Of a stretch of DNA of 64,000 bases, positions 1,919 to 28,388 are shown one piece after another. The notes beneath the pieces were generated by a model, which was given only the letters and a program-made list of their open reading frames with translations, searched no databases and had not been told where the DNA came from. The stretch's first letter is position 1; each line of letters starts with the position of its first letter. The position numbers and the translations under genes are program-made. This DNA comes from Minisyncoccota bacterium (GTDB lineage Bacteria > Patescibacteriota > Minisyncoccia > Phycocordibacterales > Phycocordibacteraceae), in NCBI GenBank assembly GCA_017991635.1, contig JAGOQE010000002.1, positions 35,018 through 99,017 of the forward strand, given 5' to 3'.

Positions 1919-1972
1919 ACTGCTCTTAGCATACCGTATGGTGCCGTAGTTGTATGAGTCGTTATACCCAAG

Positions 1973-2380
1973 CTAGGCGTGGTTACCGGCTACCGCAAAG
2001 TTTATGTACAGGTTGAAAAGATAATTCATGACACCAACAAGACAAGCAACCAGTATGCGAGCAATAAGATAGGAAAGTCCTGCGTAGGTTACGAGAAGAT
2101 AGACTGCGCCCGTAATGCAGAGCGCGCCTACACCTGCAACACTAATGAAGTATAGGTATCCGCGAGGATGCGAACGTTTTGTTTGATGGAAAACGAACTT
2201 ACGCGAGAGTACGTAGTTGATGCTCACGGCAATTAAAAAGGCAAGTGGTGTTGAGACAGTGTAAGGAATGTCACAAAACTCCGTCAGCATATACAGGAGC
2301 ACTAAATCAAAGGCGAAGGTGGACCCGCCCACAAGTGTGTATGAGAAGAAACGCTTGATAGACCGTAGTGAAAGTCTCAT
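1973..2380 (-). CDS. GtrA-family small polytopic membrane protein (polysaccharide synthesis/flippase-associated)
   Basis: 135 aa with four predicted TM helices. Size and hydrophobicity pattern are typical of GtrA-like proteins. Confidence 0.55.
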   Translation of the reverse strand: MRLSLRSIKRFFSYTLVGGSTFAFDLVLLYMLTEFCDIPYTVSTPLAFLIAVSINYVLSRKFVFHQTKRSHPRGYLYFISVAGVGALCITGAVYLLVTYAGLSYLIARILVACLVGVMNYLFNLYINFAVAGNHA

Positions 2381-20457: not shown

Positions 20458-20529
20458 GGCCTCATCGTCTAACGGTTAGGACAGATCCCTCTCACGGATC
20501 AAATCGGGGTTCGATTCCCCGTGAGGTCA
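20458..20529 (+). tRNA. tRNA-Glu (anticodon CUC)
   Basis: Cloverleaf folded by hand: 7-bp acceptor stem (one G-U), 4-bp D stem with a GG-containing loop, anticodon stem gatcc/ggatc with loop c-t-CTC-a-c, 4-nt variable region, T arm cgggg-ttcgatt-ccccg, discriminator A, no encoded CCA. 72 nt. Confidence 0.8.
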
Positions 20530-20541
20530 CAAATCGGCCAA

Positions 20542-20563
20542 CCCAAAAGCGTAAGCTTTTGGG
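20542..20563 (+). terminator. Hairpin directly after the tRNA (cccaaaagc-gtaa-gcttttggg)
   Basis: 9-bp stem with a GTAA loop, followed by ctgttgccgtttg. Confidence 0.4.
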
Positions 20564-20807
20564 CTGTTGCCGTTTGTAGACCTCACGGGAATCGAAGGAC
20601 GGAGGCCGCGAAGCCTTGCGAAGCAAGTGGCCGAGTCGGGCGTAGATTTTGTTGCGCGTGAGCGAGCTAGAAAATCAAGTGCAAAGCACTGCGAAATTTC
20701 AGCGGAAAATTATCTGTGGTCGATGGGCGCTCGTATTCCACACGAACGCAGTGACTCGGGAATATGCAGTCTCTTCATGAATTCACAGAAATATAAACCA
20801 CAGGCCT

Positions 20808-22931
20808 TTGACGTACAGATCAAATTTTATCCGCTATACTATATCTGTGGAATTTTTCTCGTACATTGGTTTACACACTCTATACTTGCTCGTTTTTTCT
20901 ATTGCCCTCGGGCTCGGTTTGGGTGCGTCTGCGCTGAGCCATATACTTTTTCTTTTTTCAGGTCGTGATCGAACAGTGTCGCGCGACGAGTTTAAATTGT
21001 TGAAAGTGTCGCGCATTGTGGTCTGGGTCGCAATTCTTTTGTATGGGTTTAGTGGACTAGGTCTCTTTACACTTGCGTATGAGTCGATGATTGAGCTTGG
21101 AATTTTTTACGCAAGCCTGACCATCGCAGTGATCCTTATCGGGAATGAAATTGTATTTGCTATGCGTCACCTACCTCGCGTGCGCGATATTCGCGACGGA
21201 AGGATCGCGCTCGATGCACTCGTTTTAGAAAGTGGGGCTGTATCCGCGGTCTCGTGGGTATTTTTAATGTTTCATCACACAATCTACAGGACTGATATAG
21301 GATATTTTGCATTTATGGCGCTTTACGCCGTGGCTATTGCTATTGTTATGCTTTTGACATGGACTGTACGCCGAAGAGATGCGCGCACTCACGACACAAT
21401 AGTGTTGAAGCGGTCAGTTCTTGCCGCTCTTTTTTTCGCACTTGTTTTTGCAGGTGCATGGCTCGCCAAGGCTGACAGCGTTATAAAGCCTGCCGAAATA
21501 GGAAAGCGTCTAGCCACCGAAGTTGTTGGCTCGACTTACACAATTGATGATGTTGCCCTTCATAATAATTCAGAGGATTGTTGGCTCGTCATTGATAGCA
21601 AGGTATTCAACGCGACTGAAGCGTCACGTCTTCATCCTGCAATGTTCAACTGTGGCGAGGAGGTGAGTGAGAATTATCACAAGAACCATGGCGAGGGCAT
21701 CAGAGATAAGATGATGAAGTACTACATAGGCGATCTTCGCAGCGGGAAAGGTGTAACGAATACCGACGCACCCTTCAAGAGGAACGAGACACTCAAACCG
21801 TACCGCGAGTTGTATGTTGACGAAGGATCGTGGAATGCACTTGAATTGATGCTTGTTGTTGAAAAAGATGCCGAGAAGCTCCTTGCTATCGACGGAACGA
21901 CGCACACGGTGATTGGGCGCGTGCACGATGTTGGTTTTCAGCCACACACCTCTGTCTACTCTTCGGATGCAAAATACATGTATATCATTTCTCGGGATGG
22001 ATGGCTCACGAAGATTGACCTAACTACTCTCGAGCCAGTCGCATCAGTGCTCGTAGGTGAGAATTCGCGCGGGACAGCTATCACTGATAACGATAAATAT
22101 GTTGCCATCGGCAATTACAATCCCGGGAATGTTGTTATCCTTGACGCTTCATCGATGGAAATTCTAAAAACTATACCGCTCTCGATGGAAAAGGATGGTA
22201 AACAGATTGAGTCTCGTGCGGGTGCAGTTGTCGAAGATGGAAATCGGATTATTGTTGCGCTTAAAGACGGGACCAGTGTTTGGGCGATAGATACTGACCA
22301 ATCTGGGTTCCCTGTGACGCATAAATTTTCGGACATAGGAGCCGGCAGGCCCGCGCTCCACGACGCCTTTCTCACACCAAATGGCTCGCATTATATTGTT
22401 GCATCGCAAGGATCGAAGACCGCATGGATACTTGATGTGGCGACCATGAAACCAGTTGCGGAGATAGAGACTGGCGATACACCGCACACGGGCCCGGGTG
22501 CTGCTTGGGGTAACTACATTTACATCCCGTCGTTGGGAGAGGGCCTTATTACTGTTATCGATATGACCACATGGAAGCCAGCGAAATATATAAAGACCGG
22601 CGGACCAGGTCTGTTTGTGCGGAGCTACAGTAAGGATCCGACCTATCCATATGTGTGGGCCGACACTGCATTCGGCGATCACAAGGATGAGATTTATGTT
22701 ATTGACGCGCGAGTCAATGAGATCGTGAAAACGATTATTCCGGTTAAGGGCGAAAGTTCGTGGCATCCGGAGTTCACCTATGATGGAAAATTTGTTTACG
22801 TTGTATCTCAATCTGCGAACGAAGTTGAGGTGTACGATGCGTACACCTTTGATATCGTAAAGCGCATTAAATCTGAGACACCTTCAGCGATATCTAACGT
22901 TGGCCTACGAATCGAAGAGCCAGGACTGTAA
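20808..22931 (+). CDS. Membrane-anchored fusion protein: N-terminal polytopic membrane domain, cytochrome b5-like heme-binding domain, C-terminal beta-propeller (YVTN/cd1-like repeats)
   Basis: Several N-terminal TM helices. The middle segment fits the cyt-b5 pattern (LHNNSEDCWLVIDSKVFNATEASRLHPAMF...YHKNHGEG). The C-terminal region has repeated beta-propeller-like blades. Confidence 0.6.
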   Translation: MTYRSNFIRYTISVEFFSYIGLHTLYLLVFSIALGLGLGASALSHILFLFSGRDRTVSRDEFKLLKVSRIVVWVAILLYGFSGLGLFTLAYESMIELGIFYASLTIAVILIGNEIVFAMRHLPRVRDIRDGRIALDALVLESGAVSAVSWVFLMFHHTIYRTDIGYFAFMALYAVAIAIVMLLTWTVRRRDARTHDTIVLKRSVLAALFFALVFAGAWLAKADSVIKPAEIGKRLATEVVGSTYTIDDVALHNNSEDCWLVIDSKVFNATEASRLHPAMFNCGEEVSENYHKNHGEGIRDKMMKYYIGDLRSGKGVTNTDAPFKRNETLKPYRELYVDEGSWNALELMLVVEKDAEKLLAIDGTTHTVIGRVHDVGFQPHTSVYSSDAKYMYIISRDGWLTKIDLTTLEPVASVLVGENSRGTAITDNDKYVAIGNYNPGNVVILDASSMEILKTIPLSMEKDGKQIESRAGAVVEDGNRIIVALKDGTSVWAIDTDQSGFPVTHKFSDIGAGRPALHDAFLTPNGSHYIVASQGSKTAWILDVATMKPVAEIETGDTPHTGPGAAWGNYIYIPSLGEGLITVIDMTTWKPAKYIKTGGPGLFVRSYSKDPTYPYVWADTAFGDHKDEIYVIDARVNEIVKTIIPVKGESSWHPEFTYDGKFVYVVSQSANEVEVYDAYTFDIVKRIKSETPSAISNVGLRIEEPGL

Positions 22932-22981
22932 GTCAGCACACCTCTTGCAATCGGAGCAGACGAAATATTAAACGGTCGAGT

Positions 22982-24004
22982 TTGCATGCTAAAATCCCCT
23001 CAATGCGCCCCCTACGTCTCCGCAAACTCCTCAAACGCAAACTCCCACTCCTCGTCTTCCTCATTCTCCTCGTTGTAGCTTTCTCTGTCGCATTTTATAT
23101 ATACCGAAACTCTCCCGTAGAGCCTCTAAGCCCCGAGGCATACAAAGAACTTGAGGCAAGGCTTGTAACACTTGTTGAGGACGAGGACCCGCGCGTCGCA
23201 CTCCATGCTCTACAAGAAGAAATTGATAGAAGTGAGAGTGTACTTCGCTCATGTCATGGCTTGGTACACGAAATAGGACATGAGGCATATGAGAAATACG
23301 GAGACGTGGCGAAGGCATTTTCATACCGAGACGAAATCTGCGGGGCAGGGTACATACACGGCGTGATTGAGTCCTATATGGATGATAAGGGGTTTGAGGA
23401 GAGTGAACTTTCTTCTATTTGCACTTCGTATAAAGGGGAAGATCGCGATAACTGCTTCCATGGTGTGGGGCATGGACTCATGTTCTATACGAGAAATGAT
23501 GTACCCGCGTCTATAACGTCATGTCATGCACTTACGGACGCGAAAGCACGTATGCGGTGTGCCGAGGGAGTCTTCATGGAGAACTTTGAGAGTGACGATG
23601 TCTTCCACCTCTCTGAGTATGTGGATGATAACGACCTCTTTGGAATTTGCAGGGAACAAAAAGAAATCTATCAAAAGGGTGCGTGTTACTTCTACGCACC
23701 ACTCTTTTATTTGAATGAACATGAGCGGGATTACGCCGACATGTTTGCATTGTGTAGGGAAGCTGAGGCTCCCTATATTTCTACCTGTATAAAAGGTACT
23801 TCAAGTAGGGTCACGAAGGAGAATATTGAACGCCCATCTCTAGTCTCTTCATACTGTATGAAGCAGAAAGGGTATGAGGGTGCGTGCGTTGAGGGAATAG
23901 GAAGTTACTACTATACGCACTACGGCGACACGAAAAAGGTAGAGGAACTCTGCAGTAAGGTTGCAAAGGATTATATGTCTGCCTGTACGAGCACGCTTAA
24001 GTAA
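22982..24004 (+). CDS. Hypothetical membrane-anchored Cys/His-rich repeat protein
   Basis: N-terminal TM followed by about seven spaced C-x-x-G/E-x-x-H/Y units: SCHGLVHEIGH, ICGAGYIHG, NCFHGVGHG, RCAEGVF, GACYFYAPL, TCIKGTS, GACVEGIGSYYY. Confidence 0.5.
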   Translation: MHAKIPSMRPLRLRKLLKRKLPLLVFLILLVVAFSVAFYIYRNSPVEPLSPEAYKELEARLVTLVEDEDPRVALHALQEEIDRSESVLRSCHGLVHEIGHEAYEKYGDVAKAFSYRDEICGAGYIHGVIESYMDDKGFEESELSSICTSYKGEDRDNCFHGVGHGLMFYTRNDVPASITSCHALTDAKARMRCAEGVFMENFESDDVFHLSEYVDDNDLFGICREQKEIYQKGACYFYAPLFYLNEHERDYADMFALCREAEAPYISTCIKGTSSRVTKENIERPSLVSSYCMKQKGYEGACVEGIGSYYYTHYGDTKKVEELCSKVAKDYMSACTSTLK

Positions 24005-24047
24005 AAACAGAAAAGCTCCACCAAAAGGCAAAGCCTTTCCGTAGAGC

Positions 24048-24365
24048 CTAGAAATTCCTGCGTTTTGTTCGTGTCAGTTCAGGCCAGATAGGCAGGCAGA
24101 GGACGACGATGAAAAGGAGAGCAAGGAAGGCAAGCACACTGCTTGTGGTCACGAAATAGTCACGCGGAGAGTGCTTCCAGCCAAGCCAGAAACACACACC
24201 ACAACACAAGGACCAGAAGAGGGAGTACGACCACGCGATGATTCGGTGCTGTGCCTTAGAGGCGCTCATGCGTAAGAGCGCGACTACCACAAAAACGAGA
24301 AAGAAGTTCAGTACAAACACTATAGTCCAAACGAGCACAGGAATGCTGATTCCAGCTTTTTCCAT
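24048..24365 (-). CDS. Hypothetical small polytopic membrane protein
   Basis: Start moved to the internal ATG (MEKAGISIP...), which has a GGAGGA SD 6 nt upstream. The longer GTG-started ORF in the track would overlap the divergent promoter. Confidence 0.5.
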   Translation of the reverse strand: MEKAGISIPVLVWTIVFVLNFFLVFVVVALLRMSASKAQHRIIAWSYSLFWSLCCGVCFWLGWKHSPRDYFVTTSSVLAFLALLFIVVLCLPIWPELTRTKRRNF

Positions 24366-24432
24366 AGCGTTTCCTCCAGTTTCTACCTCTACGCTATGAC
24401 CTAGAAGGCATAAAATCAAGCCCTCTAGGTAC

Positions 24433-24461
24433 TTGACTTTTGACACTATGTGTGATAATAT
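24433..24461 (+). promoter_or_regulatory. Sigma70-like promoter for the GC-rich gene: TTGACT ... TGtGATAAT (extended -10)
   Basis: TTGACT at 24433-24438. TGTGATAAT at 24451-24459 (alternatively read as TAATAT at 24456-24461 with a 17-nt spacer). Sits in an AT-rich 163-bp spacer 70 nt upstream of the 24529 ATG. Confidence 0.4.
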
Positions 24462-24528
24462 ATATGTACGTCAGGAAGGCTGACGAAGTACCTCAACATC
24501 AATCAGTTTACCTCTGGAGACGACCCAC

Positions 24529-25596
24529 ATGACCCAGTCCCAAGAAGCGCGTTTCGACTTCCCGGGTTTCAACCTGGTGAAGACGCAGGACAACGACCGC
24601 CACCAGGTGGAAGTCGGCACGATCGAGGACGGGGACCACGTGTTCACCGTCACCATGATCCGCAGCCAACAGCACCAGTTCCTCCCGTTCGCCATCTCGA
24701 CGGTGGCCGACAAGGACGGCAAAAAGATCTGGACCTTCCAGGGCGCCAAGCACGACGGTGTCGGCCTTCTGGCCTACGCCGGCGATGTGCCCGTCATCGC
24801 GCTCATCACGCGCGGCAAGGATCCCATCGTCGAGCGGGTCATTCCGCTCACTTCCCTGGTCAGCAACAAGCCCGTCGGGCTTCGTGAACTGATCAAGGGC
24901 AAGATGGGCGCCGCCATCGACCTCGACTGCCGCTACCGGCTGACCGAGGACGAGGGGAAGGTCGTCAAGATCGACGAAGGCCGGATGCACGCCGAGATGG
25001 TCCGCAAGGACCGCGAGGCGAGCGAGCGTCGGAACTCGGCCCGCGATGCGGAGAAAATCCGCAGGCAGGAAGAGGCCCGGGCACAAGAGGCGGAGCGCGA
25101 AAAGCGCGTCGCCCTGATCATGATCCGGGAAATCGTCACGGGCTACACCGCCCTGGGCGAACGGCGCTACGGCACTCCGGTCCTCGAGGCCGAGTGGCAG
25201 TCGCTTCCGAACGGCACCTTCGCCATTCTCGTCGACGCCATCGGCGAAGACGGGAAGGTCGGCAAACTGCTCGAAAGCTTCAAGATCGTGAAGCAGGCGG
25301 GCAGGCAACCGATGAAGGTGATGACCAGCCAGCTGGCCGCCAGGCAGGAAGGTCCGACGGAAATTCCGGAGGAGCTTCAGCCCACGGGCACGGTTCTGGT
25401 GGAGATCAAGGACGACTTCTTCAATGTCGGCCTCTACGCCTCCAAGGACCTGATCAACAGGGCCTGGAAGGCCGGTCTCAACGGCGGCGCCTATGTGGCC
25501 GTCGACGACCGTGACGCCGACGGCAAACTGGTCGTCTTCACCGTCACGAAGGAAACCGGCGCCAAGAAGGTCGGCTCCTTCATCCCCCTCGGCTAG
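24529..25596 (+). CDS. Hypothetical protein encoded by a strongly GC-rich (foreign-looking) ORF: two globular regions joined by a highly charged E/R-rich helix
   Basis: 355 aa; GGAG SD 9 nt upstream. The third codon position is almost always G or C (GAC, GGC, CTG, ATC, AAG, CGC...). Followed by a textbook intrinsic terminator. No family recognised. Confidence 0.6.
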   Translation: MTQSQEARFDFPGFNLVKTQDNDRHQVEVGTIEDGDHVFTVTMIRSQQHQFLPFAISTVADKDGKKIWTFQGAKHDGVGLLAYAGDVPVIALITRGKDPIVERVIPLTSLVSNKPVGLRELIKGKMGAAIDLDCRYRLTEDEGKVVKIDEGRMHAEMVRKDREASERRNSARDAEKIRRQEEARAQEAEREKRVALIMIREIVTGYTALGERRYGTPVLEAEWQSLPNGTFAILVDAIGEDGKVGKLLESFKIVKQAGRQPMKVMTSQLAARQEGPTEIPEELQPTGTVLVEIKDDFFNVGLYASKDLINRAWKAGLNGGAYVAVDDRDADGKLVVFTVTKETGAKKVGSFIPLG

Positions 25597-25645
25597 TCCG
25601 AGTACTGCACCTTAGGCCCCACCCAATTGGCCTTTCAAATGGGAA

Positions 25646-25678
25646 CCCCGTAGTCATGCGACTACGGGGTTTTGTTTT
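25646..25678 (+). terminator. Intrinsic terminator of the GC-rich gene
   Basis: Perfect 10-bp stem ccccgtagtc / gactacgggg with an atgc loop, followed by TTTTGTTTT. Confidence 0.7.
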
Positions 25679-25686
25679 ATACAGAG

Positions 25687-25717
25687 CGCCCCTGAAGACC
25701 TTCGGTCTTCAGGGGCG
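25687..25717. other. Second GC-rich hairpin (about 14-bp stem, 3-nt loop) between the convergent genes
   Basis: gcgcccctgaagacc-ttc-ggtcttcaggggcg. No clear T-tract on either strand. Confidence 0.4.
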
Positions 25718-25720
25718 TCT

Positions 25721-26035
25721 TCATTGCAGTGTCTTAAATTTTGTCGGATCAAGACCCGCAAGAACATTTATGGTGTGTTCACCAGGCACGGGCTCTGTGG
25801 GCACGTGAATCAATGCACACTCAGGAGAGAGACAGACGCCATCGCGTAGTTGCGTCAGGCACATAATGGCTCTCTCAAGCATCTCAGTAATGGCGAGAGT
25901 TGAAGCACTTTGAAGGAGGGACTTCTTTGTGCTTGTAATCACTCCGTCATAGATGACGGCACCGAAGCTTGACCCTTCAAATTCAAAGTCAAGAATCCAC
26001 GAGCCAGGTTGGTTCGGAAACAACAGGTCGTTCAT
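25721..26035 (-). CDS. Hypothetical protein (104 aa), downstream of truB on the same strand
   Basis: Host-like composition; no motif recognised. Confidence 0.45.
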   Translation of the reverse strand: MNDLLFPNQPGSWILDFEFEGSSFGAVIYDGVITSTKKSLLQSASTLAITEMLERAIMCLTQLRDGVCLSPECALIHVPTEPVPGEHTINVLAGLDPTKFKTLQ

Positions 26036-26071
26036 GGGTGTCTCCCAAGCAACGTCTAGAAAAACTCTACC

Positions 26072-26881
26072 CTAGGAAAAGCGCTTAAGCCAGAGACGAA
26101 GAAGGGGGAAGTATCTACCAATAGTTGTGCGGTGAATAGAGAGAGCGAGCCCGTTCGTGGCAAGGTTCTCTCCTATTCTTCCTGAAAGCGAACGCATGTA
26201 CGCTCCACTTCCTGAAATTACCCGTATACGAAGAACGGTAAAAGATTCCTGCGACGTAGTGGCAAAAAGTTCATCCCATGACTTCGTGATGGCATCAATT
26301 CTAAAATCGGCACCCAAATGTTTTGAAGGCTCGGTTGTCCGTGGTGTCTTATCCAAATGTTCACGTACACGCTCCATAAGCTCAGCCTTGGTGTAGGTAT
26401 TTCGCTCAATGAGACGAATAGCATAGAAGGCTTCTTGGTGTGTGGGGATGGTGATGTTTGCGAGCGTGCCTTCAAGTGCGTGTAGGAATAATGGCTTACC
26501 TGAAACAGTCTTGGAAGAAAATGCGGGGTAGGGAACTGCATGCACTCCTACAAGTGGTGTGAGCGCTTTGCGAATCTCATCGTCTGACACTGTCACGCCC
26601 TTTCCTTCGTGTGGAAGTCCAAGCACGTCCCCAGTATCGCTCCCGACACCAAGCAGTACTTCTACAATGTATTCCTTATCAAGCTTGGTGAAGTGGCGCT
26701 GGCGCTTGCACGTGTCTCCTACAAGTACGAGAAGCTTCCCGCTTGCCATAGGGTCAAGCCGTCCTGCGTAGGAGAGGCGTGTATCGTCAGGCATGGCGTG
26801 CTTCTCTTTAAGCTTCGTTACTACTTCAAGGGGCGTCTGGCCGACTTCTTTTTCAGCGATGACATAGGGAGGAAGGTTCAT
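26072..26881 (-). CDS. truB: tRNA pseudouridine synthase (TruB-like)
   Basis: Catalytic-Asp motif GRLDPMASG, 269 aa, PUA-less short form. Confidence 0.75.
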   Translation of the reverse strand: MNLPPYVIAEKEVGQTPLEVVTKLKEKHAMPDDTRLSYAGRLDPMASGKLLVLVGDTCKRQRHFTKLDKEYIVEVLLGVGSDTGDVLGLPHEGKGVTVSDDEIRKALTPLVGVHAVPYPAFSSKTVSGKPLFLHALEGTLANITIPTHQEAFYAIRLIERNTYTKAELMERVREHLDKTPRTTEPSKHLGADFRIDAITKSWDELFATTSQESFTVLRIRVISGSGAYMRSLSGRIGENLATNGLALSIHRTTIGRYFPLLRLWLKRFS

Positions 26882-26916
26882 AGGTTCACAGTACGTGCTT
26901 TGTATGAAAAGGAAAA

Positions 26917-26949
26917 GGCCGGTTTGAAAGCTGTGCTTTCAAACCGGCC
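26917..26949 (-). terminator. Intrinsic terminator of the small GC-rich gene (minus strand)
   Basis: Perfect 15-bp stem ggccggtttgaaagc / gctttcaaaccggcc with a 3-nt loop, followed on the minus strand by TTTTCCTTTTC. It ends 35 nt before the truB ATG. Confidence 0.65.
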
Positions 26950-26974
26950 CTGTCGTGTGTCCTGACTTCGGCGC

Positions 26975-27277
26975 TTACTGCACCGTCGCCGGGACTCCCA
27001 GATGACGCTTGATGCGGTCGGCGAGCGTTCTGGACTCACGAGCGATGCCCGTGTAGTGGCAGAACTTGCCGACCTTGGTGATCTCGACCTTGCCGTCCTT
27101 GTGGACGATGTCGAGCGTGCCGCCGTAGACTTCCTGCAGGGCCTCGTAGGCCGAAACGGGAATGGCGCCGGCGCGGTCGGGCATCCAGGCCTTTATGGGA
27201 AGCTCGACCCCCTTGGAGGTGAGTCCCGTAGCCGGCGGCTTCTGGACGACGGCTTCAAAGTCGATATTGCTGGCCAT
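26975..27277 (-). CDS. Hypothetical small protein (100 aa) encoded by a GC-rich ORF
   Basis: AGGGGG SD 6 nt upstream of the ATG. G/C-dominated third codon positions like the 24529..25596 gene. No family recognised. Confidence 0.55.
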   Translation of the reverse strand: MASNIDFEAVVQKPPATGLTSKGVELPIKAWMPDRAGAIPVSAYEALQEVYGGTLDIVHKDGKVEITKVGKFCHYTGIARESRTLADRIKRHLGVPATVQ

Positions 27278-27359
27278 GTGGCCCCCTGTTGAGTGGTTTT
27301 TGAGTTTACTAAAACACCATCATTGGAGCGCACCTTATACTCGATGTGCTTCCTTTACT

Positions 27360-27368
27360 ATTATACCA
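27360..27368 (-). promoter_or_regulatory. Extended -10 promoter element TGgTATAAT (minus strand) for the small GC-rich gene
   Basis: A perfect TATAAT hexamer preceded by TGn on the minus strand, about 83 nt upstream of the ATG at 27277. The surrounding sequence is AT-rich. Confidence 0.45.
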
Positions 27369-27385
27369 TAATTATGAAAAAAGCG

Positions 27386-27421
27386 AAAGGACGGCAACCG
27401 GGGTTAATCGGGCCGTCCTTT
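27386..27421 (-). terminator. Intrinsic terminator of the 27429..27857 gene (minus strand)
   Basis: 10-bp stem aaaggacggc / gccgtccttt, with an inner extension, followed on the minus strand by CGCTTTTTTC. Confidence 0.6.
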
Positions 27422-27428
27422 GCATAGG

Positions 27429-27857
27429 CTAGAAAAGCATTACGCGTTGCCCGCTCTTCTCCTCGCCAAAGAGGCTTGGATCAAGAAGCGTGCGTGACGT
27501 GACTGATTCTGGCGCAGGTGCTCTACGTTGTCTGGCGTAGTGCGCTCTGTTTGAAAACAGTTTGCTCACCGCGGAACTATAGGCATCAAACCTGACGCTG
27601 TCGTTCCTGCACTGCTGAGGCAGGAGTCGAAGCAGCGTTTCGCGCTTGGCCGTGTAGAAACTCTTCGGCCGGCGTCTGTGCTTCGTGTACCAGTGAACAC
27701 CGACAGCGTTCGCGAGTGTGCGAAGCATGTCTGGATCAAGTGTGGCACCCAAAACGACACGCTTATCTTTTCCGCGACCTACTGTGTGATCGCTACTAGC
27801 ATATGCAATTCCCTTGGCCACATCGGCCGTGGAGAAATGCAGAAATGAACTCTCCAA
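27429..27857 (-). CDS. Hypothetical Arg-rich protein (142 aa), TTG start
   Basis: TTG start with an AGGAGG SD 7 nt upstream. Consensus-like promoter upstream and terminator downstream. No family recognised (contains HWYTKHRRRP). Confidence 0.5.
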   Translation of the reverse strand: MESSFLHFSTADVAKGIAYASSDHTVGRGKDKRVVLGATLDPDMLRTLANAVGVHWYTKHRRRPKSFYTAKRETLLRLLPQQCRNDSVRFDAYSSAVSKLFSNRAHYARQRRAPAPESVTSRTLLDPSLFGEEKSGQRVMLF

Positions 27858-27908
27858 CGACGCCTCCTATGGCTACAGGGAAACAAGTATCAATGTTCTT
27901 TGCTCTAA

Positions 27909-27936
27909 ATTCTAGTATATAACTTAGACTTGTCAA
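27909..27936 (-). promoter_or_regulatory. Sigma70-like promoter TTGACA-N16-TAGAAT (minus strand) for the 27429..27857 gene
   Basis: Perfect -35 TTGACA (27931-27936, overlapping the yqeY stop) and -10 TAGAAT (27909-27914). Confidence 0.45.
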
Positions 27937-28388
27937 GCAAGAAGCTTATCAACAACTGCTTTAACGGTTGCACCGTCTGCCTTTCCTTTAAGTTCTTGCA
28001 TAACTGCACTCATAAAACGCCCTGTATCTTTTTTGTCGGTGATACCAAGTTCAGCTTTCTTAGCCTCTGCAATAGGGAAGACCTCTTCCTCGCTCATGAG
28101 TGTGGGGAGATATGCCTCAAGTAGAGCGAGCTCTTCCTTCTCGGGAACTGCAAGCTCATGGCGTCCTGCATTTTCAAACTGTTCTATTGAATCTTTACGC
28201 TGACTTGCGGCACGCTTGATTACAGCAAGCGCTTCCTCATCAGTGAGAAACTCATCGGGCTTGCGCTTCTTTGAGACAACCTCATTCGTCATCATCGTTG
28301 AAAGGGAGCGAAGGGTACGGAGGCGAATGCCGTCACGCGCTTTTAATGCTTCTGGGATACCTTGTTTGATTGATTCGTGTAGCGTCAT
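27933..28388 (-). CDS. GatB/YqeY domain protein
   Basis: About 151 aa of YqeY-like sequence (MTLHESIKQGIPEALKARD...). Start moved to the internal ATG. Confidence 0.7.
   Translation of the reverse strand: MTLHESIKQGIPEALKARDGIRLRTLRSLSTMMTNEVVSKKRKPDEFLTDEEALAVIKRAASQRKDSIEQFENAGRHELAVPEKEELALLEAYLPTLMSEEEVFPIAEAKKAELGITDKKDTGRFMSAVMQELKGKADGATVKAVVDKLLA

Follow-up and report, generated by a model that had tools for sequence, protein, structure and literature searches.

A conserved small-protein gene with third-position G/C bias upstream of truB in a Candidatus Pacebacteria genome

The 100-aa open reading frame (ORF) at positions 26975..27277 (minus strand) is a small protein gene situated upstream of truB, which encodes tRNA pseudouridine-55 synthase. 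It is found in a 64,000 nt stretch of DNA from a Minisyncoccota bacterium (contig JAGOQE010000002.1, positions 35,018 to 99,017; the whole stretch is referred to here as the window), and represents locus KBC16_01615 in a Candidatus Pacebacteria metagenome-assembled genome. The gene is real, it is part of a syntenic unit that is conserved together with its regulatory flanks, and it has a strong G/C bias that is limited to third codon positions and is persistent. The explanation that best fits these properties, with a probability of about 0.65, is a native, long-resident, monocistronic gene whose synonymous sites are held at G/C by a gene-specific force, likely linked to expression. As part of this explanation, the product would be a cytoplasmic protein of ~100 aa from a family that is specific to Paceibacteria-type bacteria within the candidate phyla radiation (CPR). 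We also infer high expression, read-through into truB and some functional connection with TruB, tRNA or the ribosome. The original prediction, made from the DNA letters, described the gene as a GC-rich mini-cassette inserted upstream of truB, and as one half of a module with a second GC-rich gene, a 355-aa ORF, with truB between them.

Position upstream of truB and the small-protein family

Contig flanks of up to ±10 kb around family members were compared. The relatives of the window are L001, L007/L011, L008 and L009, which are close, and L015, L016/L017 and L018, which are distant. Each of the nine contigs recovered has a family member upstream of truB. These represent seven distinct alleles and extend down to proteins that are 26–28% identical to the window protein (L015, L016/L017 and L018). 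The small gene is directly upstream of truB in seven of the nine; in L016, and probably in its near-duplicate L017, a response-regulator gene lies between the two. An empty site upstream of truB, i.e., a presence/absence polymorphism, was not found among the nine contigs.

The conservation extends to the surrounding genes. The order CysS-DnaB-RecR-L21-RmuC-ATPase-YqeY is common to the window, L001, L015 and in part L018, where contigs reach, and all contigs with family members show CPR-type synteny. The order in L015 is that of the window: CorA-CysS-DnaB-RecR-L21-RmuC-P-type ATPase-YqeY-[variable ORF]-small gene-truB-[variable ORF]-MurE-FtsI. The ORFs that flank the small gene and truB are non-homologous between the window and L015, and therefore the pair represents the conserved core.

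A search of the window for direct or inverted repeats that bracket the presumed cassette revealed none; inverted repeats occur only as the two terminators described below. The neighbors of the small gene in the window are YqeY, a 142-aa orphan ORF and truB, and there are no mobility genes among them. A comparison of G+C content at third codon positions (GC3) between the small gene and its host in the three distant lineages shows 0.58 vs ~0.55, 0.76 vs ~0.73 and 0.71 vs ~0.72, i.e., the distant homologues are host-like. The proposed insertion into the truB upstream region is thus contradicted by the presence of the family upstream of truB in nine of nine contigs, by the absence of flanking repeats and by a bias that is in third positions only. 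The comparison of truB upstream regions in relatives, which had been put forward as a check, shows no site free of the insert and host-like GC3 in the distant homologues, and so goes largely against the original prediction. The insertion reading is refuted and the small gene is a long-term resident in this bacterial group.

Homologues were recovered by a word-indexed search, which gave four close homologues, by an exhaustive HMMER search, which gave 15 more, and by a profile search, which gave further members. The family has ~20 members, and 14 of the 15 proteins added by HMMER are 95–104 aa in length. A spurious HMMER match, P0022, is a 1046-aa tetratricopeptide-like repeat protein and was rejected as a member. 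A common length is found family-wide, together with an N-terminal M..F.A.V, a central EALQ..Y.G.L.I and a C-terminal HLG..TTVQ motif. The ratio of nonsynonymous to synonymous divergence (dN/dS) is 0.15 relative to the L001 orthologue. This orthologue, P0002 (L001:9283-9726), has a public gene call that starts 47 codons early and runs through the promoter and leader. The ATG and the Shine-Dalgarno (SD) sequence are conserved and the true L001 product is therefore 100 aa.

AlphaFold2 modeling of the 100-aa protein gives a confident model of a ferredoxin-like beta-beta-alpha-alpha-beta-beta-alpha-beta sandwich. Isoelectric points in the family range from 5.5 to 10.4 and show no consistent nucleic-acid-binding charge. 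The 100-aa protein has no match in Pfam (window protein, E ≤ 0.1), PHROGs, NCBIfam or PADLOC, and a Pfam search over 17 aligned family members at E ≤ 1 shows no recurring family. There is no match to the RbfA or YlxP (DUF503) family models for the window protein in Pfam and NCBIfam, and none that recurs among the 17 members. A sequence profile search of the PDB produced noise only, scans of IMG/VR with the 100-aa and 355-aa proteins produced no viral relatives, and scans of GTDB-representative genomes and JGI metagenomes returned no matches. The structure and homology check suggested for the 100-aa protein has therefore provided a confident model, but the fold is generic and the protein matches no family in the databases searched.

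A spurious ORF that results from a GC-rich structured RNA or an antisense gene is extremely improbable. A 96-aa antisense ORF does span the small gene, and long open frames arise by chance in GC-rich DNA. However, the dN/dS of 0.15, a family with constant length and termini and the confident AlphaFold2 model are properties of a protein, the antisense open frames equal the codon-usage null, and there is no Rfam match to suggest a structured RNA.

Transcription signals and the expression of truB

The elements of the locus and its neighbors in the window are as follows.

26975..27277, minus strand: small gene, 100-aa ORF; ATG at 27277, TAA at 26975-26977; orphan family; GC3 0.83
27386..27421, minus strand: terminator hairpin belonging to the 142-aa gene upstream; AAAGGACGGC...GCCGTCCTTT, then a run of T; inverted repeat; nearly invariant in L001, L007, L008 and L009
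27360..27368, minus strand: extended -10 element TGGTATAAT; preceded by a T-rich stretch, without a good -35
27278..27356, minus strand: 5' leader of ~76-79 nt; first ~35 nt (AGGAAGCnCATCGAGTATnnGGTGnGCTCC) conserved; SD AGGGGG at the 3' end
26905..26951, minus strand: intrinsic terminator of the small gene; 17-pair hairpin and TTTTCCTTTTC
26882..26904, minus strand: spacer ahead of truB; conserved ACGTACTGTG block; no visible SD
26072..26881, minus strand: truB, tRNA pseudouridine-55 synthase; Pfam TruB_N, E=2e-18; ATG at 26881
24529-25596, plus strand: 355-aa ORF; GC3 0.87
27429-27857, minus strand: 142-aa orphan ORF upstream of the small gene

The hairpin at 27386..27421 delimits, on the 5' side, the separate transcription unit of the small gene. 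The extended -10 element that had been noted for this gene is present: a TGnTATAAT-type match is found at 27360-27368 on the minus strand. The sequence TGNTATAAT occurs only once in the 64 kb, at this position, where the chance mean for the whole window is 1.07. The element TGGTATAAT is ~85 nt upstream of the ATG of the small gene, within the 150-nt spacer, and is invariant in all five close lineages. The promoter is credible because of its position and this invariance and not because of its rarity, as one match is at chance level. Elements at the same place in the distant relatives are TGcTATATT, TGtTATAGT and TGgTACGCT.

The SD AGGGGG is 4–5 nt 5' of the small-gene ATG, and the leader, described earlier as ~75 nt, is ~76-79 nt; both elements are as had been proposed. 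The leader has a predicted fold of -23.7 kcal/mol with a z of -2.0. An Rfam search with the leader and the coding sequence (CDS) shows no match even at E ≤ 1.

The intrinsic terminator begins after a 23-nt spacer that follows the TAA. Its stem (26951..26915) has 17 pairs, of which 15 are perfect Watson-Crick pairs, and is followed by the tail TTCCTTTTC; the delta G is -30.4 kcal/mol with TTTTCCTTTT. In L008 and L009 the stem is preserved by compensatory double changes and paired single-base deletions. The near-consensus promoter, strong SD and 17-pair hairpin with T-tract provide the gene with its own expression signals, as consensus matches only.

These signals are conserved as a set. A promoter, a leader and a hairpin can be read in eight of the nine contigs; L011 ends inside the leader. 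Across the window, L001, L007, L008 and L009 there is almost no variation in the upstream terminator, the extended -10 element, the leader's first ~35 nt, the SD or the three initial codons. Conservation also covers the downstream hairpin and its T-tract among the close relatives, whose neighboring genes have a synonymous divergence (dS) of 0.9–2.8. The distant loci L015, L016 and L018 display the same arrangement, with a TGn-extended -10 element, a leader of 55–65 nt, and a hairpin and T-tract at the equivalent place directly ahead of truB.

The distant leaders have a feature of their own. L015:9940-10030, L016:385-460 and L018:3585-3665 share an invariant GGTGATGGTGG block within TT[CT]GGTGATGGTGG[AT]T. 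The GGUGGAU or GGUGAU in this block is complementary to codons 2–4 of the ORF (AUCCACC or AUCGCC) at the three loci. This complementarity could represent a long-range pairing that encloses the SD and the start codon.

The truB ATG is 33 nt from the end of the terminator stem and ~24 nt from the end of the T-tract. The 15 perfect pairs and the T-tract of the terminator agree with what was first described, but the 35 nt given as the distance to truB is roughly true only when counted from the stem. The short distance is conserved across the clade, so the arrangement looks designed, with truB probably fed by read-through and/or a compact promoter. The ACGTACTGTG block, which ends 6 nt ahead of the truB ATG, is conserved in alignments. 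TACTGT, 6 nt 5' of this ATG, could form a weak -10 element for a near-leaderless truB mRNA, to judge from its sequence and location; a consensus promoter scan of the truB spacer called no promoter. That truB has little room upstream is confirmed by the short spacer, and its proposed expression by read-through is plausible, but this does not imply an insertion.

The signals suggest a mechanism in which the small gene's own extended -10 promoter would drive transcription through the conserved leader of ~78 nt, and the strong SD would start translation of the small protein. The strong intrinsic terminator, 24–33 nt before truB, would close the unit and is probably an attenuating boundary. Read-through of this terminator and/or a compact promoter that overlaps the T-tract would most likely feed truB. 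The one locus would in this way yield much small protein and little TruB. In addition, a persistent gene-specific force would hold the synonymous sites of the small gene in the window's sublineage at ~85% G/C, mostly C, which would make the small gene look foreign.

Third-position bias and its persistence

The GC1, GC2 and GC3 values of the 100-aa ORF are 0.62, 0.44 and 0.83, in a genome of 49% GC. Every other window ORF of at least 80 aa has a GC3 of 0.34–0.65, except the 355-aa gene. The original prediction stated that the small ORF shares the GC3-dominated codon style of the 355-aa gene, and this is borne out by GC3 values of 0.83 vs 0.87 and by a correlation of relative synonymous codon usage (RSCU) of r=0.80, a shared style that is unique among ~65 window ORFs. 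Third positions of both ORFs have ~53% C and 31–34% G, and the RSCU correlation of both with the window background is r ~0. Only codon position 3 carries the GC excess; the promoter has a GC content of 0.44 and the leader 0.46. An excess that stops at the CDS borders and at third positions is not expected of a transferred GC-rich segment or of regional gene conversion.

The bias is found throughout the sublineage, where five distinct small-gene alleles have GC3 values of 0.77–0.89. The value for L001, 0.68, is diluted by the 47-codon miscalled extension. Between close lineages the dS of the small gene is 0.29–0.41, vs 0.9–2.8 (saturated) for its neighbors. A permutation test shows that codon usage alone would make 56–58% of codons at conserved residues identical in the two biased genes and ~35% in the neighbors, and therefore most of the low dS of the small gene is due to the bias itself. 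The bias has been kept while the synonymous sites of the neighbors became saturated, which argues that it is actively maintained and does not represent an import that has not yet ameliorated. In the amelioration model of Lawrence and Ochman, imported composition reportedly erodes toward that of the host over time.

The 355-aa family provides a parallel. Its GC3 is 0.2–0.3 above that of its neighbors in three unrelated contexts, L002 (host GC of 45%), L003 and L006 (51–52%). In these contexts the share of codons identical to those of the window gene has fallen to the null level, yet the GC3 elevation is kept. Other orphan ORFs also have a high GC3, e.g., L002:7719-9536 (0.65 vs ~0.40 in neighbors) and L016:2495-2851 (0.85 vs ~0.73). 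Orphan genes with raised GC3 may thus form a class that recurs in these CPR genomes.

A GC-rich mini-cassette that was recently inserted upstream of truB from a high-GC donor, and is not yet ameliorated, would account for a GC3 of 0.83 in a 49% GC genome and for the presence of its own promoter and terminator. The codon usage of the small gene is similar to that of GC-rich genomes, with r 0.60–0.74 to the backgrounds of the 60–62% GC relatives L016 and L018, and with a stronger C preference. Such an import is nevertheless very unlikely. The truB-upstream position is found in every lineage, including those where the 26–28% identical proteins have host-like composition, and there is no presence/absence polymorphism, flanking repeat or viral homologue. 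The GC excess is absent from the untranslated regions (UTRs) and from codon positions 1 and 2. The bias also persists where the dS of the neighbors is >1, a divergence at which amelioration should have erased it.

In the L009 contig the small-gene slot contains a 102-aa ORF (L009:3960-4268, minus strand) with a GC3 of 0.77 and 25% identity to the window protein. This allele is the most divergent family member, with 14–30% identity to every other, and its length and termini are kept. The L009 promoter, leader start, SD, ATGGCCAG, last codons and terminator are nearly identical to those of the window. In other lineages the window-type allele is 89–91% identical where truB is only 70–75% identical. 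Thus, while the regulatory flanks stay invariant, the small-gene CDS between them can be exchanged for another or can change radically; L009 is a single example of either replacement or accelerated evolution. Across positions 22982–28388 the dS between the window and L009 is 0.17 (340-aa ORF), 0.22, 0.32 (355-aa gene), 0.66, 1.06 (truB) and 1.3–1.8 (142-aa ORF and YqeY). This gradient suggests a recombination mosaic in which the 355-aa segment has been shared recently between the two lineages. A diversity-generating retroelement that targets the small gene was considered and rejected, as the L009 divergence spans the whole CDS and is not adenine-specific, and the retroelement of this kind seen in L003 is unlinked to the small gene.

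A recombination-prone slot, in which alleles are exchanged by way of the conserved flanks and GC3 is raised by GC-biased gene conversion or repeated import, would explain a 25%-identical allele between nearly identical flanks, the high identity of window-type alleles relative to truB, and the rise in dS from 0.17 to 1.8 over 5 kb. It would also explain the excess synonymous identity that is left after correction for codon bias. However, GC enrichment ends exactly at the CDS borders and is in third positions only, and conversion would enrich the UTRs as well. The flanks are conserved whatever the allele, as would be expected if purifying selection acts on the regulatory DNA; a divergent allele is seen only once; and the 355-aa family is equally biased in unrelated contexts that show no sign of exchange. 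The slot is on balance an improbable source of the bias.

Selection linked to very high or stable expression, through translation efficiency or mRNA stability, is the likeliest cause of the bias. Very high expression is the textbook cause, and the strong promoter, the SD, the monocistronic layout and the conservation of the regulatory DNA would agree with it. Four findings weigh against this. First, the RSCU correlation with the genes for ribosomal proteins L21, L27 and L9 is 0.04 for the 100-aa gene and -0.03 for the 355-aa gene, and these ribosomal-protein genes, the only three in the window, rank mid-table in the codon-style score. They lack the style, and so the bias is not the usual mark of high expression in this genome. 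Second, the genome-rare codons CTG, CCG and CGG are enriched, which resembles the mutational usage of high-GC genomes more than an adaptation to tRNAs. Third, the small gene is unbiased relative to its host in the distant relatives; if high expression is the cause, it either does not apply to the whole family or does not show as GC3 there. Fourth, after correction for the bias the small gene keeps 48–64% of the possible excess codon identity, compared with 16–33% for the neighbors. This residual synonymous identity represents either extra synonymous constraint or recent allele exchange between lineages.

These points leave some room for a broader and more speculative reading, rather unlikely as it stands, in which a small set of CPR orphan genes is held at 70–90% G/C, chiefly C, at synonymous sites under a gene-specific, non-canonical selective regime, independent of host composition and of ribosomal-protein codon usage. 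The set would include the 100-aa gene, as far as this sublineage is concerned, and the 355-aa family in all of its observed hosts. Protection of very abundant mRNAs from AU-directed RNases, dedicated decoding, and a role inside a GC-rich partner cell or an adaptation to one are examples of causes that might produce such a regime. Literature on CPR codon usage and abundant orphan proteins was searched and nothing relevant was found.

The 355-aa gene and comparison with known systems

The small gene and the 355-aa gene are 1.4 kb apart, and are neighbors only in the window, L009 and L011. The 355-aa family is present without the small gene in its flanks in L002, L003-5 and L006, and the small gene is present without the 355-aa gene in L015 (±10 kb), L016 and L018. 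The 355-aa gene is located in a ~5.5 kb segment between truB and tRNA-Glu/MurE. This segment is missing from the otherwise syntenic L015 and L016, and the 355-aa gene is therefore in a variable segment beside a tRNA gene. The region at window positions 20458-25700 has tRNA-Glu(CTC), ORFs of 707 aa and 340 aa, a membrane ORF of 105–132 aa, and the 355-aa gene.

The 355-aa protein has a confident model (predicted local distance difference test score of 85), comprising a beta domain at the N terminus, a helix of 60 residues and beta domains at the C terminus. A search for structural relatives found none. Pfam, PHROGs, NCBIfam and PADLOC searches with the 355-aa, 142-aa and 104-aa proteins gave no matches. 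There is no sequence similarity between the 100-aa and 355-aa proteins, nor between the 100-aa protein and the 91-aa ORF beside the L006 homologue of the 355-aa gene. The shared codon style is the sole link between the 100-aa and 355-aa genes.

The two genes had been proposed to form a split two-component accessory module that flanks truB, with their codon style derived from co-expression or a common origin. The style, with r=0.80, is unique among the ~65 ORFs. Both genes are orphan and monocistronic, with TG-extended promoters and hairpin terminators; they are 1.4 kb apart in three contigs; and a homologue of the 142-aa ORF adjoins the 355-aa homologue in L006. The module is nonetheless doubtful, since beyond the sublineage neither family has the other near it in the available sequence, the ~5.5 kb segment is lacking in L015 and L016, and the proteins are not similar in sequence. 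The distribution of the two families, each of them alone in the flanks of other contigs, does not support the split-module claim.

Other genes near the two families were noted. The L006 homologue of the 142-aa ORF (positions 1920-2339, minus strand) is 46% identical and is 600 bp from a 355-aa homologue that is itself 43% identical; this hints that the 142-aa and 355-aa families are linked. The 142-aa ORF is non-homologous to the ORF at the same position in L015. A diversity-generating retroelement (bAvd and reverse transcriptase) is present at L003:18247-19645, 7 kb from a 355-aa homologue. Beside it, at L003:17200-17814, is a 204-aa ORF with a GC3 of 0.77. No link to the small gene was seen.

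The small gene reveals that an island of sharply different composition, even one equipped with a promoter and a terminator, does not have to be an insertion. The analysis defines an uncharacterized small-protein family that is tightly and anciently coupled to truB in Paceibacteria-type CPR bacteria. It is a candidate for a lineage-specific partner of the tRNA or ribosome maturation machinery, or may simply be a very abundant protein. The slot of the small gene tolerates a radically different allele, as in L009. A gene-specific GC3 codon regime outside ribosomal-protein genes, if general, would mean that composition-based calls of horizontal gene transfer in CPR genomes need a caveat.

Small genes upstream of truB are known from the classical nusA-infB-rbfA-truB-rpsO operon, where they encode RbfA, or YlxP (DUF503) in Firmicutes. 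Sharp and Li reportedly found a reduced synonymous divergence in bacterial genes that are highly expressed and codon-biased. The small gene has several properties of such genes: its promoter and SD are strong by sequence, its unit is monocistronic and ends in an efficient-looking terminator, and its extreme bias is synonymous only, with a low apparent dS and long persistence. It differs from them in that the bias is not found in the ribosomal-protein genes of the window and favors all G/C-ending codons, including the rare CTG, CCG and CGG.

Horizontally acquired islets also have a locally atypical GC content and codon usage, sharp borders and self-contained expression signals. Unlike these islets, the small gene has a position that is conserved in relatives, no repeats or mobility genes, an excess in third positions only, and host-like orthologues elsewhere. 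The rpsO-pnp operon of E. coli has an internal intrinsic terminator that sets gene stoichiometry. The arrangement described here is similar, with a small upstream gene of presumed high expression, a hairpin terminator and an enzyme gene close by without an obvious promoter; it is unlike rpsO-pnp in that read-through is deduced from the DNA sequence.

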